Positions 6,937 through 64,000 of a stretch of 64,000 nucleotides of DNA are shown here, piece by piece; within the stretch, counting starts at the first letter, position 1, and every line of letters begins with the position of its first letter. This stretch comes from Tricharina praecox (lineage: Eukaryota). The DNA is taken from positions 124,001 to 188,000 of the forward strand of contig NW_026250441.1 of NCBI RefSeq assembly GCF_024521635.1, given 5' to 3'. Made by a program: the position numbers and the translations under genes. A model generated the notes under the pieces. It was not told the origin of the DNA, made no database searches, and worked only from the letters and a program-made list of their open reading frames with translations.

Positions 6937-7905
6937 ATGCTGTTCAACTTTTTCCGGCTCGCCGCCGACTTCTGCCATCTCGCGTCGAAGGCGATCCTGC
7001 TCGTGACGATCCACAAGCACCGCAGCGCCGAGGGTGAGCCCGACTGATCTCGCATACCCCCTCCCGTGCTGCATCATGCTAACATCCACTTTCCACCAGG
7101 CGTCTCGCTGCTAACCCAAGCGCTGTACACGCTCGTCTTCTTCACGCGCTACCTCGACCTGCTGTTTACGCCCCCGTTCATGCAGCCGTACAACACGATC
7201 TTCAAGATAACCTACATCTTCTCCTCTTTGTACACAGTCTACATCCTCCTGCGCGTCTTCCCACGCTCCCGCGAATCCGAATCGCAGTGGAAACTAGCGA
7301 TCTACCTCCTGGCCGGCTCCGCGGTCTCCGCACCAATCTTCCAATACTTCTTCTCGCGCGGCGCCGGCAGCTGGTTCCTAATTGAGACGCTCCGGGACTT
7401 CAGCCTGATCCTCGAGTCCGTCGCGGTTTTACCGCAACTAACCCTTCTCGCGCACACCTCCGTGCCCACAGTGCTGAATAGCTACTACCTCCTGGCACTG
7501 GGCTCCTACCGCGCGCTATACATCCCGAACTGGATTTTACGCGCGCTCGACCCCAAAGACCAGTTCCAGGAGCCCGTAGCGGTGCTCTTCGGGATCGTGC
7601 AGACGCTGCTGTACATCGAGTTCGCGTGGATCTACTGGCGCCGGCAGAAGGTGAAGCTGCGCGGCGGCGGGGGCGTGCTCGATGGCGAGGAGTTTGCGCG
7701 CGGGCTTGTTCTTGGAAGGTTGATTGGTGGGGGCGTCGGGAAGACGGCGCGCGGAGGGCAGACCGGGGGCGGCTGGAGGGGAGGCGGGATTAGTGTTTCC
7801 GCCGATGACTTTGTTGTTGATGAGGAGGAGAGTGATGATGAGGAGTTGCAGCTTGAGAGGGAGGATGACGCGGAGAGGGGCCTGATTGAGGGCGGGAGAG
7901 CGTAG
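6937..7905 (+). CDS. ERD2-like ER lumen protein-retaining (HDEL/KDEL) receptor family protein, 2 exons (6937-7033, 7100-7905), about 300 aa
   Basis: MLFNFFRLAADFCHLASKAILL...SAEG|VSLLTQALYTLVFFTRYLDL...FSLILESVAVLPQL...YLLALGSYRALYIPNW match ERD2 family motifs. Intron GTGAGC(7034)...GCTAAC...CAG(7099). Confidence 0.9.
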
Positions 7906-8911
7906 TGGGGGGTGGAGGGCGGTGGTGGAGAGGGGATTGGAGGGATGGTGGGATGGGATGAACAAGGGATTTGGATGTTTTTTTGATGAGGAAATGGAGC
8001 ATGGTTTATGTAACTGCGATAGCAAGCATCGGACGCGAGTGATGACAAGATCCCGCCAGCTCTTAAGCATCCTCACTTGGGGACCAGGGTCCAGTAACGA
8101 CGGGTGTGCGAGTAATGATCGGGGTAAAGAAAACTGGCAGTAAAGACGTAAGCCGAGCTCGGAATCAAGCGATACATTCGTCGCAGCCGGTACTGTGATC
8201 ATAGAGTATCACTCGGGTCTCAGTGCTTTGCTCACCCGTTGATGTCTTCAAACAGGAGAAGGAGCAAGCAGCGGCGCAGCGGCACAGTAACGAGCCCTAT
8301 TAGAGCTGTGTCTTCAGGCGAGGGTTGGTAGGAACCGCCGGGTGAGAAATCGCCAGTCTTGATAGGCCGTTTGCGGCAATGAGTTGATGTTCCCTGGTGG
8401 GAGGGAGGGAGATAGAGGGAGGCATGGAAGGAGCAAGTCCGAGAAATACACCTGTATTAGTCACAGCAGCTCTCCACGGAGTTACGGGCAACTATAGTAG
8501 TAAATACCGGATCCGGGACCGGAAATACCGAGGCCGCCAGTTGTTGGCATGCGGTCTTGCGGTCGGTCAATATGCCAATTTGGGGATGCGGAATAGGTCC
8601 GTCCTGTGCTGACGGTCCACTGATGGGCAGGTGGAGTTAACGTACATTCCATCAGTATTGGCGTATGTACAGCTGCATCCATTAGTATCGAGCAACTGGG
8701 CGGGTGGTGAAGTAGATTATCTAGGTGCAGCGTCCGCTGAGTTGAAGCACTCCATGAGTCCATGGCTGGAGTGATGATAACGGTAGGTAGTGGATTGAGT
8801 TACTGCCGCGAGGGGGACGGAAGGGTTGTTTAAGCATCATCGCACTCCACCTTCGTACGTAGATCATGGCAGCGAGGCACGCACCACTTCATAATTTCCG
8901 AATTCGCATAT

Positions 8912-9070
8912 CCAGCACGGAAAAACCCCCGCGTGGTCTAGTGGTTTAGACTAGGCAATCGGCGAGGGGAGTCAGGTCTAAAGCTCCGGGTTCAACCCAG
9001 GTCGACGAACTTTATATTCAGCTCTTGGGGTTTCCAAGCCACTCGCCGGGGGTGGTGGTGGTTTTTGTTT
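8912..9070 (+). ncRNA. tRNA-derived Pol III-type cassette (SINE head or small ncRNA), unit U0
   Basis: A box TGGTCTAGTGG 8934-8944 and B box GGGTTCAACCC 8988-8998, then hairpins CTTGG-ggttt-CCAAG and CCACTC-gccgg-GGGTGG, then TTTTT 9062-9066. No acceptor stem can be formed, so this is not a canonical tRNA. Confidence 0.5.
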
Positions 9071-9927
9071 TGGGCTTGAGGGTGGGAGCATACGCTATCA
9101 CTCGGTATGTGGCAAGTGACCCCACGCGCGGCTGGTTTTTTTTTGCAATGCTTTCGTAAACCTGGGAGGAGGTAGTAAGCTTGAGGCAACTCGCTCACAG
9201 CACTGGCTTTATAATATCTCCAGCCTCCGCTTGTCTTATCATACTCAGAACCTAGGATTTGTCGTCACAGGTGAGCTCACCGGCTTTCTATACTTTTGCT
9301 TGTGTCGGCCCGAGGCGGATGGGTAGGGGAACTGGTGCGCCGCATGGGACTGGTCTGTACCGGGGCTTTCACCTGGACTGGCCACGGCAGACAGGAAACG
9401 GAGGCCGTGGGTTCGCCATAGTCTAGAGAGGCTGCATGCGAAATAAAACAGGAAGATCTCTCTCTATCTCTCTCTCCAACACAGGGGTAAGCAAGCAGCA
9501 GCCCAGCAGCGAACTGCTCGGCAGCAGTGTATTCAGACGGAGCCGGTAGGAAATGGCGAATAAGATTCAGGAAATCGTGATGGTCGTGACAGCCGTTTGC
9601 GACAATCAGTTGGTTTTCCCAGGAGGGAGGGAGGGAGGGAGGCGGCGCGCAGCGGAAACTAAGCTGTGCGCGGGCGAGAGGTGTTCCCTCCCTTATTTAG
9701 TCGGAGTAAAGAGATAGCTAGTCATACCTACTATACTCATGAACTATTGGCCTGCCGTCCAGTGATCGGTGGCTATGAGATGAGGAATACGTCCGGTGCT
9801 GTGCTGAAGGTCCACCTTTACACATGTGGGGATAACTTATAAGACTCCATCAGTGTATAGCTACGGTATTGACTATCCCGGGACGGGGTGGCACACACCA
9901 CTTCATAATTTTCAAAATCAAGTCTCT

Positions 9928-10086
9928 AGCACGGAAAAACCCCGCGTGGTCTAGTGGTTTAGACTACGCAATCGGCGAGGGGAATTGAGTGCAAAGTGCC
10001 GGGTTCAAACCAGATCAACGAACTTTGTATCCAGCTCTTGGGGTTTCCAAGCCACCCGCCGGGGGTGGTGACGGTTTTTGTTTTTG
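9928..10086 (+). ncRNA. tRNA-derived Pol III-type cassette, unit U1
   Basis: A box TGGTCTAGTGG 9947-9957, B box GGGTTCAAACC 10001-10011, same two hairpins, TTTTT 10075-10079. Confidence 0.5.
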
Positions 10087-10766
10087 GCAAGACGGGTGCA
10101 ACATTGGTTCTCACTCGGCAACTGACACACCTTGCGCTGCCGGTTTTTTTCATGTTCAAAGAAACGACTCATAGTCAGACCGAAGTACTCATTTCCAAAA
10201 GTGTTGTCCTAGATGTGATGCAATTTGGTGCGTACAGTTCAGTTGCAACATGTAGATGAATAAGGTGGACTTTGTCCGGTAGGAAGGGCTGCTATAGTTG
10301 CTTCTCGGACGTTTGCCTTCTACCATCTTCACGCGTGAGCTGGTTACATACGCTGCCGGCCCGAGTCATGTATCCGGGAGTAGGTAGTACACGTGAGCCA
10401 GCTCGCCCACAGCGCTGGCTTCATGATATATCTGCAGCCTCCGCTAGTCGTACTCGGAACCTGGAATTTGTCGGAATAGGTGAGATCGCCGGCTTTCTAT
10501 ACAGGATCGGGGCTGGAGAGATTGTAGGTGTGTCTTCCATTGAATAGATACCGCCGGATCGCTAGATAAAACCACTTCTTCCGTGCTCATATCATCCCTC
10601 CCACATCATCCTTCTCTAGACTTCCAAACACCTCACGAACACAATAAAAACCTCCAGAACACATCACACACAATCAAAACCTTCAGCGCCCATCACCGCG
10701 GGTCTTTCGAACTCTTTCTAGACTCGGTACCCTTTTTCAACCAACTACCCTCAAAACACAAACGCA

Positions 10767-10922
10767 ATGGGTGGCAGAACGTCACAGAGTCGCGTTTACT
10801 TGTGGAGATGCGACAATTGCTCGCACAGTAACAGCATGAACTCCCGGACGTGCGAGCAATGCGACAAGCGCTGTTCGCGCAGAGCCTGGGTCTCACACTG
10901 TGAGGCCGAGTTGAAATATTAG
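10767..10922 (+). CDS. RanBP2-type zinc-finger microprotein, copy 1 (51 aa)
   Basis: Hand translation: MGGRTSQSRVYLWRCDNCSHSNSMNSRTCEQCDKRCSRRAWVSHCEAELKY*. Exact W-x-C-x2-C-x3-N-x6-C-x2-C. A/C-rich leader CAAAACACAAACGCA-ATG. Frame conserved in 3 paralogs. Confidence 0.72.
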   Translation: MGGRTSQSRVYLWRCDNCSHSNSMNSRTCEQCDKRCSRRAWVSHCEAELKY

Positions 10923-12452
10923 ACTTACTAGTAGGGCGCGCTAGGGATAGCGTCTTCCCTGGATGGGCGGTCTGCGCAGGTTTGGGTAACTTTCTCTGTT
11001 AGGTTTGCGGGTATTTCTGTTGCGTTCGATGGTTTTTTTTAATGTCTTTCGTGTTGAAATTCCTTGCTGTTGTTAGATGTTGCACGCTTGAGTGCTGGGA
11101 GTCTGACTTTCTTGTTTCTTGGTGTGTACATAGGTCGCTTCCTCATATCCGTCTTCTGACGTGCCGATTGTGCATGTTTCCAGTATCAATCTTTCCTGAT
11201 TTTCCAAACGTTTTGAATTCCATGTTTCTACAATAGTGACAGTTATGGTTCCGGATTTCTGCAGATATCGAATTGGGTGGTAGGCTGCTAAGCAGCAACG
11301 GACAGTGGTGGTCGAGCTTTCTCTCGACCCGTGGAGCTGGCAGGAAAAGTCGGGGCGTTGGTGGTCGCCACAGTCTATTCAACGAACTGATGCCATATCA
11401 TATACGGCTGCGAGTTTCTATAATGATACATGTATGCATCTCGTGTGAGTTTTTGTCGATACATACCGGCGGCCAACCATAAGCAGGCCGGCTGCTAACC
11501 CCTCGAGGGTCCTTTACTATCCACCTTGCATTTTAAACGCCTTTCTCCCGGAGTTGAGGAAACTCGGTGGTCAATTCAAGATGGCTTCAAGGCCGTTTGG
11601 CAACCCACTTCCCATTACCGCAGGAAGAAATTTTGCTGTATTTGCGCTTTTCTTGAAATCTACGAAGCCATGTAACCCAGTTTTTTAAAATGTGGGTTTG
11701 ATTAAAGTCTTCACCATACACACCAACAAGCTGCCGAAGGTAGAGTCCGCAGTTTTTTGCTACCGTAGGTCTGAAATGTAATTAACACCGCCTACTTTTG
11801 CCAAAAGAAATCTCAAAAATCGCTTTTTATTACCCGCTTTGTAATTAATTCGATTTTTTCATCAATTTTATACCCCATTGACTCAATGAGTCCCCTGCTA
11901 TACGGTAAAATTGACTTCAGGTGGGACTAGCAGAAAATGTCGGGCAAGAAGTCGCCACAGTCTTGACAGGCCGTTTTGACCGTTAGTTGATGTTCCCATG
12001 AGGCAGGGAGGAAGGGAGGAAGGGAGGGAGGAAGGGATAAAGGAGTGGAGCAAGATCAAGACTTCGCACCTCCAATCCCATCGTCCGAAGTAGGTAGCCA
12101 AAGCAGCTCTCAAGTCTCCACTGACAACCAGTAAATACCGGATCCAGGACCGGGTACATGAAGGCCATGCATCGTGTTATGGTGCGGGCGTCGCGCAGTG
12201 AGCGGAGATCAAGCTAGGGCCTTGTGAGTGAGGGTGGGGGGTGTTCTCTCACTCCCTCACTCGCTCGTTTAGCTGAGGCCCGGGAATGAAGAGATACCTT
12301 ATAACCATGGTTAAGCACTACCTCTTTAATACGCTCTACTTGTATCGCCGGGACAGGCCAGGACGTAGGGTAGGGGAGGCCACACCTGGTCGCCGGCTGC
12401 AGGTTGAGTTACGCGGGGCACCTATCACTTTATCATTTTCGAATTCATGTAT

Positions 12453-12616
12453 CCAGCATGAAAAAAACCCCGCGTGGTTTAATGGTCAACAAGCTGGGCC
12501 ATGCAATCGACAAGGGGATTTGAGCGCAAAGATCACCGTCCAAACTCAGGTAAAACTTTTTTGTATTCAGCTATTGGGGTTACCAAGCCACCCGCTGGGG
12601 GTGGTGATGGTTTTTG
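12453..12616 (+). ncRNA. Degenerate tRNA-derived cassette, unit U2
   Basis: A box TGGTTTAATGG 12475-12485, B box decayed (CCGTCCAAAC), hairpins and TTTTT (12611-12615) retained. Confidence 0.4.
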
Positions 12617-13040
12617 TTGGCCGCAGGGACACAGCTGCCAGCATGGGATATCACTCGATGCGTGACTCGGCTTCCGCTCCAGTCTCCCCTAGTCGTATTC
12701 GCAACCTGGAATTTGTCAGAACAGCTGCGCTCGACAGCTTTCTATTGATCATACCGGCTGATGGGCTTTCAGGTGTGTATTCCATTCAATAGATACCGGC
12801 GGATTGCTTGTTAAAACTCCTTCTTCCATGCTCACATCCTCCCTCCCTCATCATCCTTGTCTAACCTTCGAAAACACCCCACGAACAGAATCAAAACTTT
12901 CAGAACACATCACACACAATCAAACCCTTTAGCACACATCACCGGTCTTTCGTTCAACTCTTTCCAGACCTCAGTTTACATCACCCCGGCTCCGTACCAT
13001 CTTCCAAGTTCGAGCTAAATACCCTCGAGGCACAAACACA

Positions 13041-13211
13041 ATGAGTGGCAGAACTTCAAAGCCTTGCGTTTACTTGTGGAGATGCGACAATTGCTCGCAC
13101 AGCAACAGTATGAACTCCTGGACGTGCGAGCAATGCGGCACGCACTGTTCGCGGAGAGCCTGGGCCGCACACTGTGAGGCCGAGTTCAAATACTATCAGA
13201 CTTACAAGTAG
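13041..13211 (+). CDS. RanBP2-type zinc-finger microprotein, copy 2 (56 aa)
   Basis: MSGRTSKPCVYLWRCDNCSHSNSMNSWTCEQCGTHCSRRAWAAHCEAEFKYYQTYK*. ATG context CACAATG. Gap-free alignment to copy 1. Confidence 0.7.
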   Translation: MSGRTSKPCVYLWRCDNCSHSNSMNSWTCEQCGTHCSRRAWAAHCEAEFKYYQTYK

Positions 13212-13870
13212 GGCGTGCTAGGGATAGCGTCTTCCCTGGATGGGCGATCTTCGCGGGCTTGGGTAATTTTCTTTGTTAGGTTTGCTGGTATTTCTGTCTT
13301 TCTGTTAGGTTCGATGATTTTTCTGTCGTTCGTGTTGAAATGCTTTGCTGTTGTTTGATGTTGCACGCTTGAGTATTGGGAGTCTCGTTTTCGTGTTTCC
13401 TAGTTTGTACATAGATCGCTTCCTCATATTCGTCCTCTGACGTGCCGATTGTACGTGTTTCCAATACATATAAATCTTTCTTTCCGTTTCCAAAAATTGT
13501 GAATTCCATAGTTTTTTACCATTATGACAGCTGAAATATCGGGCAAGAAGTCGCCACAGTCTTGACAGGCCATTTTGACTGTTAGTTGATTTTCCCATGA
13601 GGCAGGGAGAGAGAGGGGAAGACCAAGATATCGCACCTGAACTGGTTGAAGCAGCTCTTCACGGACAAGTATAATAGTAAATACCAGATCTGCGAGGATC
13701 GAGGCCGCTGCAGCGTGGTGTGCGGCGTTGTACTGCCAGATTTGTGCTGCCTGCGTCGCGCAACGAGAGGAGCCAAAGCTGTGGCCGTGGGGGTCCAATG
13801 GACGGCACTTAGTCGCTGTTCTCGTCCGTCACGGAGCATGCACCAATTCATAATTTCCGAATGCATATAT

Positions 13871-14060
13871 CCAGCACGAAAAAACCCCCGTGTGGTCTAG
13901 TGGTCAACAACCTAGGCCACTCAATCAACGAGGGGAGCTGAGTGCGAAGGTCACCGTTCAAAACTAGGAAAAAGGCCGTTTTATTCAGCGCTTGGGGTTT
14001 CCAAGCCACCCACCGGGGATGGTGATGGTTTTTGGTTTTTGGTTTTGGTTTTTGGTTTGG
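13871..14060 (+). ncRNA. tRNA-derived cassette, unit U3
   Basis: A box TGGTCTAGTGG 13893-13903, B-box-like CCGTTCAAAAC 13954-13964, hairpins, then an expanded (TTTTTGG)n tail 14029-14060. Confidence 0.42.
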
Positions 14061-14764
14061 TAGCACGGGTGAAGCATGGGAAGTCACTCAGTACCGGAAA
14101 CCTCACACGCTTCTAATAAGGTGGACTTTGTTCAGTAGGGCTGCTATCTTTGCTTCCGCGCGTGTGCCGTCAACCATATCCTACCTAGCCTTGAGTTTGT
14201 ACTTGCAGCTACCTCAAGCAAACCGCCAGTCTGGCCGGCTACTTCTCACGGGCCGATGGAATACTGCTCTGATGTAACGCTGATGGACTTCGGGCTCATC
14301 GTCTCGGTGTCGGTTAGAAGGATTTACTGGCGATCCTATAGAAAATCATTGGGAACCTCTAGCATATCCCTAGGGGATGTTTCTGAAGCACGTGTCCAGG
14401 CTCGTCAGCGGTCCATATGCCGCGAATGCCACCACAGCAACAGCCGATTGCCGGCTTTCTATCCATGATACGGGCTGGAGGTATTGTAGGCGTATGTTCC
14501 ATTCAAAAGATACCGCTGGATCCCTGGTTAAAACCCTTTCTTCCGTACTCACATCGTCCCTCCCCCATCATCCTTCTCTAACCTTCAAAACTACCTCACA
14601 AACACAATCAAAACCTTTAGAATACATTACACACAAACAAAACCTGCAGAACACATCACCACCGGTCTTTCGAACTCTTTCTAGATCTCAGTTTATTTCA
14701 CCCCGACTCGGTACCTACCACCTTCTTCCAACCAAGTTCCAACTACCCTCAAAACACAAACGTA

Positions 14765-14926
14765 ATGAGTGGCTGAACGTCAAAGCCTCGCGTTTACCTG
14801 TGGATATGTGCGTTTTGCTCGCACAGCAACAGTATGAGCTCCCGGAAGTGCGAGCAATGCGGCAAGCACTGTCAGCAGAGCGATTGGATCGTACACAGGG
14901 AGGCCGAGGAAAAATATTTGCGTTAA
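14765..14926 (+). pseudogene. RanBP2-type zinc-finger microprotein, copy 3, premature TGA at codon 4
   Basis: MSG*TSKPRVYLWICAFCSHSNSMSSRKCEQCGKHCQQSDWIVHREAEEKYLR*. TGA at 14774-14776 where copies 1 and 2 have AGA. Confidence 0.7.
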
Positions 14927-16392
14927 GGCGCGCTAGGGATAGCGTCTTCCCTGGATGGGCGATCTGCGCGGGTTTGGGTAACTTTCTCTATTGGGGTTCA
15001 ATGATTTTTCTGTCTTTCCTGTTAAAATGCGTTGCTGTTGTTTGATGTTAGACGCTTGAGTCTCGGGAGTCTCGCTTTCTTGTTTCTTGGCTTGTAGGTC
15101 GCTTCTTTGCGCGCTTCGCCGGCGCTGACCGGCGGGGGCATGGGATGTCACTCGGTACGCGACACGTGACAGGAATAAAAATCCAGCTCCTCGTCTCTGA
15201 CGCCCGTGTTTTCTATATCCTGCTTCACGCCCTGACTCCTACATGTTCCTAGTCCATTGCCGATAAGGCCAAACTCTGGGTGAGGACGCTAGGTGCGGTG
15301 GGGAGGAAGAGAGGCGAGGTCTCCACCATCTCGCTTTCGTCTCCCCTGGCTCTTGCTTCTCTCTTTTCTTCTACCCTCGCCGCCCTTTCCCTCGCCACTT
15401 TCCTCGCCCCTGACCTCTCTGATCTTTCTATGATATGTGGGGTTCGCTTCCAGGTCAGATTCCAGAGGTCTGACACGGGGGTTTCGTTGTGTCTTCCGTT
15501 CCGACGGGTGGTACCCCCCGCTGTACGTCTATAGTTTAAAGCAACGCACGCACTGCGTAGCAGCCATCCCCATTCTTGTCTTTTCCCCTCCTGCTCCTTT
15601 TTCTTACCTTCGCCCATAGGGGTTTCTGCTTTGCTTTCCATTATGGGTAGCTCATAAAGAGCTGGGGTGTGGATTATGTACTGGCACCACCAAAATCGCG
15701 CTGAGGGAAACCCGCGGCAAATCTGCTCACAACCCACAGGCGCTATCGAGTAAATCTGGCAAATCTAGGAGTTAGTTGAGTGCCTGGCGGATGCTTTTGG
15801 ATCACGTGTCCAGGCTCATCGGTGGTAGATACACCGCCAATGCCGCCGCAGCACAAGCGGATTCCGTTCCAGGGTAGTAACTGTGAAGCGGATATCCGCT
15901 CTAGTATAATAGATGAAGAATAATGGCCGCGTACGTTCCGTGATGACCGGCATTTCACCTCTGTATGAGCCGCATGGCTTTCTCGACTACAGCCGGGACT
16001 GTTTTTTTTGCTGAGCATGAGTCGAGCCGGCTCTCTCCTACGCTGTCACTTTTGCTTGCCATCATAGTCGGAAGCTGGGATTTGTCGGTTGGGAGGTATT
16101 GTATAACAGGTGAGCTTGCCGGCTTTCTATTCATGATACCGGCTGGAGGGATTGTAGGCGTGTGTTCCATTCAAGTAATACCGCCGGATCCCTAGTTAAA
16201 ACTCCTTTTTCCGTACCCACATCGTCCCTCCCCCGTCATGCTTCTCTAACCTTTGAAACTACCTCACAAACACAATCAAAATCTTCAGCAGACATCACCG
16301 GTCTTTCGAACTCTTTCCAAATCCCAGTTTACTCACCCCGACTCGGTACCGTCTTCCAAGTTTCAACCAACTACGCTCAAAACATAAACGCA

Positions 16393-16560
16393 ATGGGTGC
16401 CGAATCGTCAAAGCCTGTCGTTTACATGTGGAAATGCATCATCTGCACGCACATGAACAGTATGAGCGACCAGTGGTGCGACCAATGCGGCAAGCGCTGT
16501 TCGGACAAAGCCTGGGCCGCACACAAGGCTGCCGCGAAGCGATATAAGCCCTATGGATGA
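16393..16560 (+). CDS. RanBP2-type zinc-finger microprotein, copy 4 (55 aa)
   Basis: MGAESSKPVVYMWKCIICTHMNSMSDQWCDQCGKRCSDKAWAAHKAAAKRYKPYG* (3' part of track ORF 16162..16560). Same ATG position and leader as the paralogs. Confidence 0.75.
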   Translation: MGAESSKPVVYMWKCIICTHMNSMSDQWCDQCGKRCSDKAWAAHKAAAKRYKPYG

Positions 16561-16894
16561 TTGTTCTTTGGATGGGCGATCTGCGCGGGTTTGGGTAACG
16601 TTCTGTTGGATTCGGTGATTTTTCTGTCTTTCTTGTTTTAATGCCTCGCGATTGTTTGATGTTGCACGCTCGAGTGTTGGGAATCTCGCTTTCTCGCTTC
16701 ATGGCTTGTAGGTCGCTTCTTTGCGCGCTTCGGCGCTTCCAAATATCCTTCCTCCAACCTGCCGATTGTGCGTGTTTCCAGTACTATGAATCTTTCTTGC
16801 TTTTCCAGACATTGTGAGTTCCATGATTCTACCGTTGTGACAGCTATGGCTCCGGGTTCATGCAGATATCGTATCGAGTAAGGCTGGCGACGAT

Positions 16895-17127
16895 CAGTGT
16901 TCTACATAGACCCGACCGGTCGGCCGACCGATCTGGTCAGTCGGGATATATCCCGACCCGACTTTGGGTTTTGTCCGTCGGGATAAAATTAAGTAGACGT
17001 GACTTAGGGTTTAGTAGGTCGGGATATATCCCGACTCGACCAGACCTAAAATATTTTGGTCGGGATATATCCCGACCCGGCCAGACCATGCCCAAATTTG
17101 GTCGGGACTGGTCTATGTAGAACACTG
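16895..17127. mobile_element. MITE / non-autonomous TIR element, hAT-like CAGTGTT termini, 233 bp
   Basis: Perfect 18-bp TIR CAGTGTTCTACATAGACC (16895-16912) / GGTCTATGTAGAACACTG (17110-17127). Three internal palindromes GTCGGGATATATCCCGAC (16940, 17018, 17059). No TSD visible. Confidence 0.8.
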
Positions 17128-19386
17128 AACCTTTTATCCTTTTCCTCGCTCATTCTCTGGACTCCGCCCATTTCTTTCTTTTACGTACCCTCTGTTGAAT
17201 GTGTGCTAAGGTGCGGGGGCCGGGGTGGATGTCGGAGAGTGAGGAGGTTGAATGGTGGGGAAGCGGCGAAGTGAGGTGGTGTGGTAGTTGAGTATTGGGG
17301 TGGTAGGGGAAAGAGTATGCGCGGATGATCTAGGCGCAAAAGGGAGGATCTATGTAACGCTCAAACAGCAGTTTTCGCTCGTAAAATTGTTCAGCCCCCC
17401 TCGTCAGACCACTCAGCGATCGTGCGGGAGACCTTTCGGTCTTCCGCTGCATGTCGGGCCCACGTATCTGCCGTCGCGTTCCGGGGTATGGTTACTCTCC
17501 AGGTATACCTAGAGTACAGTGTGGTATGTATGAGTGATGTTTACGATGGCGATACACCTCATGTCACTCGAGCCTTCCGCAGCCGTGTGAGGGTCTAGTT
17601 GACACTTTCGGGTGCGCTAACCTGACATCACAATTCATGCCTCTGTACAGGGTCACGGTACTAGTAACTGGTGACCCGGGGGCCGGTTCTCACCCATCCG
17701 AGAACAGAGCACCACCGCTCACTCGTCACTAGCACAGCTTGGCCAGACAATGCACGGACGGCAAAGTGGCGTCTATGTACTGATCGTGGATGATTCAGCT
17801 GGTGGCTGGCTGGACGATGGCCACAGTTAACTAGAGTAGGTACTCTAGCCCTCATCTGTTAAGCAGGCAGATGTCGGATTTCAAAGTCCGGGCCGGAGTC
17901 CCGAAGCTGTACACTTCCATCCCATCGTATGCTCCCCGGCGGCTGGGATTCGAAATACTCACCCACATCCCCCCGTCCTCCTCCTTCGCGCGGAGATGCA
18001 TATTTCAGCGCCGTCGCCGATGTTTCTCTCTCTGTTTCTCTCTCATCTCATCTCGTCTCGCCAGTCGAAATCGAAATTCAAAATCGAAATCGAAACACAC
18101 ATCCCACGTTCGGGCCGTGCGTGGGTGAGGTGAGCGGCATGCGCTCGTGATCCCTGTCCAAGCAACCCTTCCGCCTCCCCGCGCGGCTCCGTTTCTGACG
18201 TGTCAGATTTTTGTAGCGCCCACGCCGAATTTCTGCCCTCCTTGGGGGCGGGGGGGTTGGGTACGTGCTAGTGTGTAGTGTGAGGCCTTTTCTGCCTAAT
18301 ACGTGTTCTGGAGCGGTCGGCGATGAAATGTGCTAGCATATGGCAGGTGGCGGGGGGTACTGCGTCCTGGACTGGTTCGGTGGAGGGGCGAGGGGTGGAA
18401 ATGAGAGGCGCTGGACACCTCGCTCGCTCGCTAACTGAATCGACGCGGAAGGGCTGTACCGCGCCGTACCGTACCGCACCGTACGGATCATCGCTCCTTA
18501 TCTGTCAAGCTGCTGCTGACGACGACGATTTGGAATTGTTGACATGACGATAACTAGATGTCTATGTGCTCTACTCTGGATACATGATACATGATCCATG
18601 ACACCTACATCACGCACCGGCAGTTCAGTTCAGTTCACATGCTCTTGGCTCGAGCTCGTTATCTGTTCGTAAATATCGGGATAATCAACTAGGTATGTGC
18701 TCCACAGTAGTTGCTGGACCTCCACGCGGCAGATCCAGCTCGACACGTCGTCGTCGCTCGGACTGCATTCCCGAGGAGATGTATTGGACAGCGGAGAGTT
18801 CCGCTGTGGACAACTCGCTCATGCAAGATCATAGGTACTCTACACATCTATTCTACTCTAGCAGCGGCGAGATTATGGGGGATTCACCCGGACCCGGGGG
18901 CCGGATATCGATAGAAAGTCAATCGTACATATGTAAGTGCTTTCACGGGTGCGGTACCGAGCAGTGCGAGTGGGGGGCTGGCATTTACCATGACCAATGA
19001 ATAGTCTCCTCTAGGGAAACGAAGCAAGCCACAGGGCCCGGGGGAACAGGGAGTCGCGACGAGTGATCGGCAGTGAGCTGGCGGTGGTCGGTTCGAAATC
19101 GGACTGTTTAGGTTCGGGCCTGACAGTCCCAGGCTCTCACTCAGCAACTTTTAAATTCTCGACTGGTACAGCCTGCGAGTCTGAGGTGAAATTGAAGCTG
19201 CCGATGATTTGCCTGTTCCGGCACGGCGACGGGGTCCGGAGCGGGATGAACACCGTACCTATGGTACATATCACTCTCGATGTGGCGCGGGCCCGAGGGA
19301 AGCCACGGATACATACTATACTACCTATGCCCGCTGGGGATGCGTGGGGTGGAGGGTCAGCACCATGGGAGGTGACTCGGTGATCT

Positions 19387-60839: not shown

Positions 60840-62030
60840 ATGGCCACCAACACTCAGGTACCCGGCGTCCCCCAGCAGGACAAAGTACCAGTGGCACCCC
60901 CCTTCTACCGAGAAATTCCTGCCGCTATCTACGAACAACTCGAGATCATCGTCAATCATGATGTACCCGCCGATGATGCAACCCTGATGGGGTTGTACAA
61001 TGAATTCAGAATCCTCACCCGCGCAATCACCCAGTCCCCAATAGCCGTACCGACCTGGCGATTCGACGACCTTGAAGAACAACTTGCTGACGCCCGCCGC
61101 ATCGCCAACCGCCTCGCAACCGTCGAAACCCAACCTCCAAGACGCGCTGAGCGCGTCCCAGAGCCAGCCATGTTCGACGGAACACGCGAGAAACTGGAAG
61201 GGTTCGTTGCGCAACTTTGACTCAAGCTGTACAGCGACCCAGCCCGTTTCCCAATTCCAGCACTCCGAATGGCCTATGCCTTCAACCGCTTGGAAGGCCG
61301 CGCCCAAGCCCAGATCCTGCCGTACATCGAGAATCACAACATCACCCTCACCGACGCTGATGCGATCATCACACTCCTGAACAACGCATTTGGTGACCCT
61401 GACCCAGCGGCCACCGCTCGAGCCAAGCTACACCACTTGAAACAAGGCAATAAGGAGTTCATCTCCTACTTTGCGGAATTCCAGATGCTTGTCTCCAAGC
61501 TCAATTGGGACGAGCATGCGAAACCTGACGCGCTGCGAGAAGGAGTATCCATCGAACTCCACCATCAACTTGTGGGCCGTACTCAGGGCCTCAACTACGA
61601 TGAGTTTGTGGCACTCTGTCAACGCCTTGACTCCGAGCCGCGTGCCCTCCAACTTCGTGAGGGACGCCGCACCACCAACCCCCCTCGGCAGAGTAGCGCC
61701 CCACACCCAACGGCTCCGCTCAGGCACACCACCTACAACACCATGCCCGCGACGACCACTGCCACAGGAACGGCCCCCGGAGCCATGGACTTGAGTGCCA
61801 ATAGCCGCAGGATCCCAGACCAAGAGCGTGCTGCCCGACTCCGCGAAGGCCACTGCCTGTACTGTGGGGGAAGTGGCCACATGGCCAGGCACTGCCCCAA
61901 CAAGAACCGAAATCCGTTCCGAGCAGCTGTGGCCCGGCTGGAGTCAGCCCAGCCCACCAACACCACCCCAACTCACACCTATCACAACTGCAACCAGGAT
62001 TGCGGCGAGACCTCCCAGCAGTCGGGAAAA
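60840..62030 (+). pseudogene. gag: Ty3/Gypsy gag with in-frame TGA at 61218-61220; end drawn at the frameshift site
   Basis: PEPAMFDGTREKLEGFVAQL*LKL, YAFNRLEGRAQ, LKQG...YFAEF capsid motifs, PGAMDLS, CCHC knuckle CLYCGGSGHMARHC, ending SGKA. The stop is consistent with CGA>TGA. Confidence 0.88.
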
Positions 62031-64000
62031 GCCTGGACCAACAACCGCTTGATGGCACTGTTGTTGGTCGTACCCAGGATAAGTCTTTGTCTCCTATGTC
62101 CCCTATTTTTCGTTTGTCTAGTCTCTCAGTGTCAGGAATGGTTGTGGAAGAATCATCAATGGAAGGAAAACATCTTGTTGTATTGTGTAACCTTTCGTTT
62201 GGTGACAAAACTATTGCCACGCATGCGCTGATCGACTCTGGGGCAACCGGAATTGCATTTGTAGACAAAGACTTCGCCCGCCATCACCACCTACCCCTCG
62301 TACCCCTGAAATCCCCGCGAAGTCTCGAAGTCAACGATGGCCGTCCCATCGAGTCAGGCGACATCACACATGTTGCCACCACCACCCTGTCCATACAGGA
62401 ACACCACGAGCAAATCCCTATGTTTGTCACCAAACTAGGCCACTACCCCGTTGTACTCGGAATTCCCTGGATGGACCTCCACGATGTGGCCATCCGGTTC
62501 AGCTCCCGAACCCTCACCTTCGGCTCCCAATACTGCACAGCCAATTGCGATGCGGTGCCCACAGTTGCACATGGAATCACCACCGACCCGCCTGACGTAT
62601 CCACCTACGCTCTCGCGTCAAAAGCAGCTCAGCAAGAGCCAGCGGTAAGCGCGGGGGCCGGCGACATCGTGGCCCGCTACATTACGTCTCCCCCAAGGAA
62701 GAATCACCAAGAATGCACTAACCTTTCAAGGGAAAGCACAGTCAGAATCTCAGCCTTACAGATGGAGTCATTCCAAGAACTGGTCAACAAGGAGAGCCTC
62801 ACGATTTTCAACACCACGCTTGCCGAGGTCAACGGTGCACTGGAAGGAAACAAGGACCCCACGGCAAATATCCCTCACGAATACCAAGAATTCCTACCGC
62901 TGTTCTCTGAAGCACTTGCTCAGAACTTGCCCCCGCACCAACACTACGGCCATAAGATTCCACTCAAGGAGGGATTTACGTCACCATACGGACCACTGTA
63001 CTCACTTTCGAAAACGGAGCTTGTCGCACTGAAGGAATGACTTGACGACAACCTCAGCAAAGGTTTCATCCGTGCCTCTTCCTCTCCAGCAGCATCGCCA
63101 ATCCTGTTTGTCAAGAAATCGGATGGCTGCCTACGCCTGTGTGTGGATTACAGGGGCCTGAACGAAGGAACAATCAAGAATAGGTACCCACTCTCACTTC
63201 TCCAAGAAACTCTGATGCGGCTATCCGGGGCAAAATACTTCACCACCCTGGATATCCGCGGTGCCTACAACCTTGTGCGGATGGCGGAAGGAGAAGAGTG
63301 GAAAACTGCCTTCCGGACACGCTACGGGCTCTTCGAATCCCTCGTCATGCCCTTCGGCCTCACCAACGCCCCTGCCGACTTCCAAGCTCTGATCAACGAT
63401 GTGCTACGCCCGTTCCTCGACGACTTCTGTACCGCATTCATCGATGACGTCTTCATTTACAGCGGATCCTTAGATGAACACCGGAAACATGTCAGGAAAG
63501 TACTTCAGGCCTTATCAGCAGCCGGTCTACATCTCAAACCCGAAAAATGTCATTTCCACCAGACAGAAGTCAAGTATTTGGGACTGATCATTACAACAAA
63601 CGGGATCAAGATGGACCCAGCGAAAGTCTCCTGCATACTGGAATGGGAGGAGCCGAGTACCGTCACCGATGTGCAATGCTTTCTGGGATTTGCGAACTTC
63701 TACCGGCGATTCATCCAAGACTATTCCAAGGTGGTATCCCCATTGACAGCATTGACCAAGAAGGAGGATGGAAAGTATGTTCCCTTCATGTGGGGACCGG
63801 AACAGCAGAAAGCATTCGACGAACTAAAAACAGCATTCACCTCGGCCCCGATCATCCTGCACTTCGACTACGATCGGCAGATAGTAGTGGAAACTGATGC
63901 CTCCGACTACGTCTCTGCCAGAGTCCTATCTCAGTACACCAACGAGGGAATCCTGCACCCAGTGGCTTTCTATTCCAAGAAACACTCCCTCGCAGAATGC
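62024..64000 (+). pseudogene. pol: Ty3/Gypsy pol (protease, RT, start of RNase H), in-frame TGA at 63038-63040, runs off the window
   Basis: Protease ALIDSGATG. After the stop the same frame reads [34 protein letters not shown]...[28 protein letters not shown]...FIDDVFIYS...YLG...[12 protein letters not shown]...VETDASD...HPVAFYSKK. Confidence 0.93.

Follow-up and report, generated by a model that had tools for sequence, protein, structure and literature searches.

A tandem array of small RanBP2-like zinc-ribbon genes in Tricharina praecox, probably an expansion of an undescribed fungal gene family

Can a single zinc finger, with little else attached to it, be the entire product of a fungal gene? 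The question is raised by four short open reading frames (ORFs) within a 64,000-nt stretch of DNA from the cup fungus Tricharina praecox (Pezizomycetes; contig NW_026250441.1, positions 124,001-188,000; hereafter the window, in whose own numbering all coordinates are given), which a first-pass annotation had taken for an unannotated family of stand-alone RanBP2-type zinc-finger proteins. By comparing the four ORFs with each other, with their flanks and with relatives in protein and metagenome collections, we show that a conserved small-protein gene family exists, and that the window holds a four-unit tandem array of its paralogues, one unit of which is dead. The four ORFs are probably a lineage-specific tandem expansion of this real, undescribed fungal gene family.

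All four ORFs lie on the plus strand. Copy 1 (10767..10922, 51 codons) is intact, starts with MGGRTS and belongs to a derived subclade; copy 2 (13041..13211, 56 codons) is also intact and starts with MSG, the change of Gly2 to Ser having removed the myristoylation-type motif; copy 4 (16393..16560, 55 codons), starting with MGAESSKP, is intact and the least derived. Copy 3 (14765..14926) has lost Gly2 as well and is a pseudogene, since it carries an in-frame TGA at codon 4 (14774-14776; translation MSG*TSKPRVYLW...), which leaves three intact ORFs. The first-pass annotation had placed four paralogues correctly and had overlooked that one is broken; the tandem-unit structure and the MGxxxS N-terminus had escaped it too. 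Specifically, the array spans 10380..16890 (plus strand) with conserved cores at 10380-11290, 12625-13570, 14340-15170 and 16010-16890, and its units start about 2.27, 1.72 and 1.63 kb apart, as marked by the direct-repeat families D1-D4 and D9, each of which is present in all four places. When approximately 900 nt around each ORF are aligned, conservation extends over about 800 nt of each unit and takes in both the 5' leader and the 3' flank. About 270 nt upstream there is a conserved CCGG-rich block that contains a TCTAT motif; the leader is rich in CT/CA, and the flank that comes after the ORF is rich in T and G. The conserved upstream block, comprised of the CCGG-rich sequence with TCTAT and then the CT/CA-rich leader, lies at 10483..10698 in unit 1 and at 12728-12943, 14445-14660 and 16113-16328 in units 2-4 (repeat family D1, plus strand), and would correspond to a promoter plus 5' untranslated region. 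The most conserved part of the unit, at 93-100% identity, is a 41-nt block beginning TTCCCTGGATGGGCGATCTGCGCGGGTTTGGGTAAC that lies 5-35 nt past each stop codon (10955-10995, 13232-13272, 14947-14987 and 16564-16604, plus strand; repeat family D9). One frame of this block reads FPGWAICAGLGNFL, in phase behind the TGA of copy 4 and out of phase in copies 1-3.

The encoded proteins align without a gap over 51 positions. S6, V10, Y11, W13, C15, C18, H20, N22, S23, M24, C29, Q31, C32, C36, W41, H44, A47 and Y51 are constant in all four copies, a list that reproduces exactly the invariant residues noted at first sight and adds S6 to them. Between copies 1 and 2 there are, as counted before, 11 residue differences and five synonymous ones, none on a Cys (12 nonsynonymous and five synonymous changes by NG86). 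Additionally, the initial impression of indel-free ORFs within indel-rich flanks is borne out by the counts: the first 150 ORF columns hold no indel, against 3.7 expected (Poisson P = 0.025), while the flanks show 15 events in 609 aligned columns, two of them multiples of three; the one indel within the ORF, at codon 51, is a 3-nt gap that preserves the frame. The G+C content of third codon positions (GC3) is 0.69-0.73 in the ORFs, as compared with 0.78-0.85 in three neighbouring genes and a flank G+C content of 0.42-0.52. The zinc-finger frame alone is open in three of the four copies, and every alternative reading frame over the ORF is interrupted by stops in two copies or more. The three intact ORFs are all absent from a collection of 15 billion proteins, whereas the neighbouring gene is, and they have therefore been missed by the deposited annotation, in agreement with their description as unannotated. 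At position 16420, the contig of metagenome run X1 that covers copy 4 (depth 5.9) has A instead of G, a strain difference that would change Val10 to Ile; residue 10 varies across the family.

Relatives were found with a profile of the four copies, which gave 64 matches at E <= 0.001 among 1.84 billion protein representatives. Five of these, 58-102 aa long, cover profile positions 1-47 or more and are full-length relatives: P0004 (60 aa), P0006 (58 aa), P0007 (60 aa), P0008 (101 aa) and P0011 (102 aa, with the family region at 45-102). Homologues of 58-60 aa thus occur elsewhere as complete proteins, and the stand-alone character assigned at the outset stands. P0008 is XP_051336264.1, the hypothetical protein BZA05DRAFT_421608 of Tricharina praecox; since it lies on a 529-kb contig and the window's neighbouring gene on a 191-kb contig, it is an annotated paralogue elsewhere in the same species. 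Compared with the other family members, P0008 runs about 40 residues past the helix, and an intron or the true stop could have been overlooked in its gene model. The remaining matches are confined to the ribbon (positions about 12-35), mostly in several stretches. Among five of these ribbon-only matches scanned against Pfam, P0001 combines ten PF00641 fingers with a RanBP1 domain, PF00641 is also present in P0005 and P0009, P0002 matches several zinc-ribbon families including PF00641, and P0003 matches none; the best non-family match of the whole search carries ten PF00641 fingers. Copy 2 alone as a protein query returned no candidate, the family profile retrieved the same five relatives and nothing further from a word-indexed protein collection, and the best look-alikes in the ESM Atlas (0.84-0.89) all belong to unrelated zinc-ribbon clusters.

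Metagenomes were scanned with a degenerate DNA pattern that fixes M1, G2, Y11, W13, C15, C18, N22, C29 and C32 and purposely omits S6, C36 and H44. The scan returned 13 loci, eight of which are family members and five unrelated or broken (L002, L003, L004, L008 and L012). The eight fall into three orthologue groups, A (L001, L005, L011), B (L006, L009, L013) and C (L007, L010), and every one of them keeps S6, C36 and H44 although these residues were outside the pattern. At each locus the gene occurs once; a TATA-like box lies some 230 nt upstream, the leader is rich in CA and the 3' flank in T and G. Between groups A and B the coding sequence is 84% identical without a single gap; in the flanks, identity drops to about 53% and 72-106 columns are gapped. 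The 29 differences, distributed over codon positions as 5, 7 and 17, comprise 15 synonymous and 14 nonsynonymous changes, which gives a synonymous rate (dS) of 0.66, a nonsynonymous rate (dN) of 0.10 and a dN/dS of 0.16 (Fisher p = 1e-5); against group C, dN/dS is 0.32-0.39. These comparisons indicate that the metagenome single-copy orthologues are under purifying selection. With regard to synteny, 22 stop-to-stop ORFs around two orthologous loci contain one Pfam match, a RING finger, and share none with the neighbours in the window.

The alignment of ten family sequences reveals the hallmarks of the protein. M1, S6, Y11, W13, C15, C18, N22, C29, C32, C36 and H44 are invariant, and G2 and one Ala are nearly so; the seven sequences outside the window all agree with one another in 15 columns (M, G, S, Y, W, C, C, N, C, C, C, D, H, A and A; hereafter outgroup-invariant). 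The suggestion that C36, H44 and H20 form an extra metal site finds no support in that form: C36 and H44 are present in all ten sequences, but position 20 is N, T or H outside the window. At the N-terminus, a Gly2 after the initiator Met with Ser or Thr at position 6 is the PROSITE PS00008-type motif for N-myristoylation. G2 and S6 occur together in copies 1 and 4 and in all seven outside sequences, while copies 2 and 3 have Ser2; the MGxxxS(K) start fits this motif and is a likely lipid-anchor signal.

AlphaFold2 (AF2) models built with the family alignment predict disordered residues 1-6, short strands at 12-14 and 21-23, and a C-terminal helix. This helix spans residues 38-50 in copy 4 (mean predicted local distance difference test, pLDDT, 78.4; block means 86-91 across residues 11-50) and 40-59 in P0004 (pLDDT 74.8). 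The family profile matches a Nup153 two-finger chain first in the Protein Data Bank (PDB; E = 1.5e-5), followed by single fingers of NPL4, HOIP, RanBP2, TAB2/3 and TRABID (E = 0.008-0.1). The model ribbon superposes on the fingers of TRABID, Nup153, RanBP2 and RYBP within 0.6-0.8 Å over 24-27 residues at Foldseek E >= 0.2, and an all-against-representatives structure alignment places RanBP2-type fingers on top at Z <= 3.3; neither search gave a match at Foldseek E <= 0.001 or Z >= 5. The ribbon presumably binds zinc.

How far does this justify the name RanBP2-type? Fingers of that class have the spacing W-x-C-x(2,4)-C-x3-N-x6-C-x2-C. The strict pattern W.C..C...N......C..C occurs four times in the six frames of the 64-kb window, exactly in the four copies, while in P0004, P0007, P0008 and group B the second knuckle is C-x4-C, a departure from the RanBP2 pattern. 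Copies 1, 2 and 4, the copies that were scored, reach 11.2, 9.9 and 20.7 bits with PF00641, all below its gathering cut-off of 27 bits, and the five outside relatives match no Pfam family at E <= 0.01. The class assigned by the first-pass annotation is supported by the motif in all four copies, by the RanBP2-like fingers among the top PDB matches and by the ribbon superposition, but not by the Pfam threshold.

We turn to the divergence of the paralogues. A maximum-likelihood tree of 11 rows, in which copy 3 was entered with X at the stop, unites the four window copies in one clade (support 97/94) and copies 1-3 in a subclade (97/95) whose branch measures 1.68 changes per column; P0008 groups with the canonical sequences, with its position unresolved. 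Copy 4 keeps all 15 outgroup-invariant residues, copy 1 keeps 12, having lost D38 and two Ala, and copies 2 and 3 keep 11 each, having lost G2 in addition. Amino-acid differences affect three of the 15 outgroup-invariant columns as compared with 24 of the 36 others (p = 0.005). The lineage of copies 1-3 exceeds copy 4 in unique changes in each of 21 relative-rate comparisons (for example 11 vs 3; individual p 0.008-0.34). Among copies 1-3, dN/dS is 0.51 (1 and 2), 0.76 (1 and 3) and 0.81 (2 and 3); for copy 4 against copies 1, 2 and 3 it is 3.55, 2.16 and 1.51, respectively (Fisher p = 0.034, 0.15 and 0.64). The nonsynonymous proportions of the latter pairs, 0.31, 0.31 and 0.30, lie above the flank divergences of 0.20, 0.23 and 0.18 (p = 0.012, 0.10 and 0.005), whereas that of copies 1 and 2, 0.096, lies below its flank value of 0.178 (p = 0.023). 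Together, these values, which come from pairwise comparisons with shared branches and small counts, suggest but do not prove an adaptive burst after duplication and then some constraint. The proposal of a conserved scaffold with a rapidly varying surface is likewise suggested by the dN/dS of 1.5-3.5 and the avoidance of invariant columns, on few sites and non-independent pairs. Repeat-induced point mutation (RIP) was rejected as the source of the divergence, as transitions and transversions are about equally frequent (56:57 to 81:76) and RIP indices of 0.81 and 1.14 are as elsewhere in the window.

The same divergence lends itself to another reading, which we hold unlikely and which nonetheless survives better than the other alternatives: the whole array would consist of decaying duplicates, the functional gene being the P0008 paralogue on the other contig and copies 1-4 unexpressed relics with few lesions yet. 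The stop codon of copy 3, the disappearance of Gly2 from copies 2 and 3 and of D38 and two Ala from copies 1-3, and the lack of the ARWG C-terminus in all four copies would fit decay, but copy 4 keeps the complete outgroup-invariant set despite approximately 50% divergence from all relatives. Neither is dN/dS, at 0.5-3.5, ever clearly below 1; the amino-acid differences avoid invariant columns, however, copies 1 and 2 have a nonsynonymous rate under their flank divergence, and a nonsynonymous rate over flank divergence is not expected from relaxed selection alone. At the nucleotide level the ORFs (divergence 0.105-0.288) are no better conserved than the flanks (0.126-0.244), yet the four copies contain no frame-breaking indel, when only two of the 15 flank indels are multiples of three, and GC3 is still high. 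The lack of annotation and the position of the array within a repeat-rich stretch complete the case for decay.

Several observations weigh against the preferred reading of a real, expanded gene family as well. Residues invariant elsewhere are gone from the derived copies (D38 and two Ala from copies 1-3, G2 from copies 2 and 3), and the family C-terminal ARWG is absent from all four. The dN/dS of 0.5-0.8 within the group of copies 1-3 does not fall significantly short of 1, so that decay of these copies is conceivable, and the dN/dS values above 1 rest on three to six synonymous changes, with one of six pairs at p < 0.05, uncorrected. The PF00641 scores are all below the cut-off, with no Pfam family at E <= 0.01 for the outside members, and the structure-search scores of the predicted models are weak. 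Myristoylation is predicted from a motif, and in groups A and B Gly2 is followed by Phe, a residue that the PROSITE pattern disfavours there. Finally, the genome annotation has no calls for these ORFs, and the coding status of each window copy is deduced from sequence comparison, as is the presumed expression of the intact ones.

Taken with these reservations, the expansion of a real family remains the reading that we prefer, and its course may be outlined as follows. Family members would be single-exon genes for proteins of about 55-60 residues, built of a disordered MGxxxS(K) N-terminus, a RanBP2-like four-Cys ribbon (Y11, W13, C15, C18, N22, C29 and C32), Cys36 with His44, and a C-terminal helix. 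A unit of about 2 kb, comprising promoter, leader, ORF and 3' flank, would have been duplicated in tandem in T. praecox; copy 4 would have remained conservative and copies 1-3 would derive from a fast-evolving duplicate, of which copy 1 retains the full N-terminal motif, copy 2 lacks Gly2 and copy 3 was killed by its codon-4 stop. The protein may be myristoylated and held at a membrane, and its ribbon-plus-helix surface may bind a partner. Since the contact residues for ubiquitin, Ran and single-stranded RNA (ssRNA) differ, this partner would be something other than one of these bound in canonical mode. The paralogues would then have altered the ribbon-helix surface, diverging under selection on it. 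Our best guess for the whole is a membrane-tethered recognition module.

The surroundings of the array bear on a third reading, namely that the ORF is no host gene but part of a transposable element or a dispersed repeat unit. Neighbouring ORFs encode Gig2-like/DUF1479, Fungal_trans and ER-lumen-receptor domains, and the DUF1479 ORF, along its entire length, matches the Tricharina praecox DUF1479 protein with 100% identity. Beyond the ERD2-like gene (7048-7905), the window contains very few long ORFs and few Pfam matches from 8200 to 60000, up to a Ty3/Gypsy-type retrotransposon at 61221-64000 (plus strand; gag, aspartyl protease, reverse transcriptase and RNase H) that continues past the window end; the array sits at the edge of this long, gene-poor and repeat-rich stretch. 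A repeat of about 200 nt occurs at 8875-9085, 9890-10100, 12415-12625 and 13833-14045 (plus strand, 83% mean column identity). It looks like a short interspersed element (SINE), because it combines tRNA-like box A and box B motifs (GTGGTCTAGTGG and GGTTCAAACC), a GC hairpin and a terminal T-run; ARAGORN and Rfam do not call it, and its metagenome contig depth is 20-100x that of its surroundings. Rfam and tRNA scans found nothing at gathering score, and their sole E-value match was a chance MIR444 row (E = 0.12). Directly after unit 4, at 16894-17128, follows a 235-nt element resembling a miniature inverted-repeat transposable element (MITE), with terminal inverted repeats of 24 nt that are 92% complementary, the palindrome GGTCGGGATATATCCCGACC present three times in its interior, and high metagenome contig depths of 146 and 37. 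An 88-nt repeat (family D7) accompanies a GGGAGG-rich run at 11898-11999 and 13305-13598 (minus strand), with related pieces at 8330-8400 and 9558-9645; it opens a minus-strand ORF, MG(T/K)STN(G/S)QNGLSRLWRLLAR..., in two of its four copies and lacks an ATG in the other two, and this ORF is probably non-coding.

An origin of the zinc-finger ORF in such elements is highly improbable. The tRNA-like repeat and the MITE do flank the units, a retrotransposon lies at 61-64 kb, and the entire 800-nt unit is repeated rather than the ORF alone; however, at all eight metagenome family loci the gene is single-copy and equipped with a TATA-like box and a leader of its own. The Pfam scan gave no transposon-protein domain, the only such row being Zn_Tnp_IS91 at E = 0.21. 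Contig depths in two soil-metagenome runs that contain this stretch at about 99% identity were 2-9 over the ORF bins, as in nearby unique sequence, against 63-809 for the tRNA-like repeat and 146 for the MITE, which gives weak support, as the depth of a contig is not a copy number. A metatranscriptome from the same study yielded no contig here, a result without bearing on expression.

Equally remote is the idea that a longer spliced gene includes the small ORF as one of its exons, joined for example to the conserved hydrophobic frame 3' of the stop (FPGWAICAGLGNFL...): the 41-nt block is indeed the best-conserved part of the unit and lies in frame with the ORF behind the TGA in copy 4, but an intron or read-through was rejected on account of phase (+2 relative to the ORF in copies 1-3, 0 in copy 4), of the lack in copy 4 of a GT...AG pair able to splice ORF to block, and of the poor donor sites and the length, 41-44 nt, of the candidate introns in copies 1 and 2, while the homologues stop within 60 residues with no extension and the ATG has the same position in all copies and all relatives.

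The preferred reading, a tandem expansion of a real small-protein family, carries several implications. A zinc finger with a lipid-anchor-type N-terminus and one helix would be an entire gene product, in a conserved family for which neither the domain libraries nor the abstracts in the literature found give a description. Three intact copies are missing from the annotation of a sequenced fungus, which illustrates that gene callers overlook genes of about 55 codons. The array also offers a natural experiment, with one conservative, two diverged and one dead copy within 6 kb, that can show which surface of a minimal ribbon may vary. More speculatively, and with little confidence on our part, these myristoyl-anchored, stand-alone RanBP2-type ribbons might be restricted to Pyronemataceae and act as an intracellular recognition module, the tandem paralogues of T. 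praecox being under diversifying selection on the ribbon/helix surface while the metal scaffold stays fixed, and Cys36 with His44 forming a second metal site that is completed by the partner or between molecules. If true, a fixed scaffold with a diversifying surface is the signature expected of a conflict system, be it against a mycovirus or a transposon, or in allorecognition.

How, then, does the family compare with known systems? The RanBP2-type and NZF fingers (PF00641; Nup153, RanBP2/Nup358, NPL4, TAB2, HOIP, TRABID, ZRANB2 and MDM2) share with all four copies the spacing W-x-C-x2-C-x3-N-x6-C-x2-C. Their subclasses are told apart by contact motifs, which we compared, as generally known, by eye with the family alignments. 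Ubiquitin-binding NZF fingers are marked by Thr-Phe directly behind the second Cys and by a hydrophobic residue within the second knuckle; in the window copies Cys18 is followed by SH or TH, confirming the missing TF dipeptide noted at the outset, and the relatives have GN, KN, RH or GT. The Ran-GDP-binding fingers of Nup153 and RanBP2 have Leu-Val/Leu after the second Cys, as is also visible in the Nup153 alignments of the PDB profile search, where the family has [STGKR][HNT]. In ssRNA binders of the ZRANB2 type, the conserved Asn is followed by an aromatic residue and the third Cys is preceded by an Arg-Arg pair; following N22 the window copies read SMNSRT or SMSDQW, so the RNA contacts are indeed missing as first stated, and the relatives read AMRTQT and similar.

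Two further systems approach the family in architecture. The NZF of HOIL-1L with its C-terminal helical tail (PDB 3b08) presents the same succession of ribbon and helix and appears in both structure searches (Foldseek rank 35; rank 26 with Z 2.6), a weak match with a root-mean-square deviation of 3.2-8.7 Å; it belongs, as one domain, to a large E3 subunit, and the family does not share its ubiquitin-contact residues. The C(P)XCG small zinc-finger proteins of archaea and bacteria are reported to be stand-alone zinc ribbons of fewer than 70 residues (PMC11241148), and in that respect alike; they show no sequence relation to the family, come from another domain of life, and lack the RanBP2 Trp/Asn signature and the N-terminal MG motif. 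The RanBP2-type and NZF fingers, for their part, are modules of larger proteins, whereas in the window family the finger is the whole protein. Half of the family relatives differ from those fingers by C-x4-C in the second knuckle, and the family adds to them an invariant C36, D38 and H44, a packed C-terminal helix and the MGxxxS N-terminus. With the fold class already known, what is new here is the stand-alone architecture that combines an anchor-type motif, an extra invariant Cys and His, and a helix.

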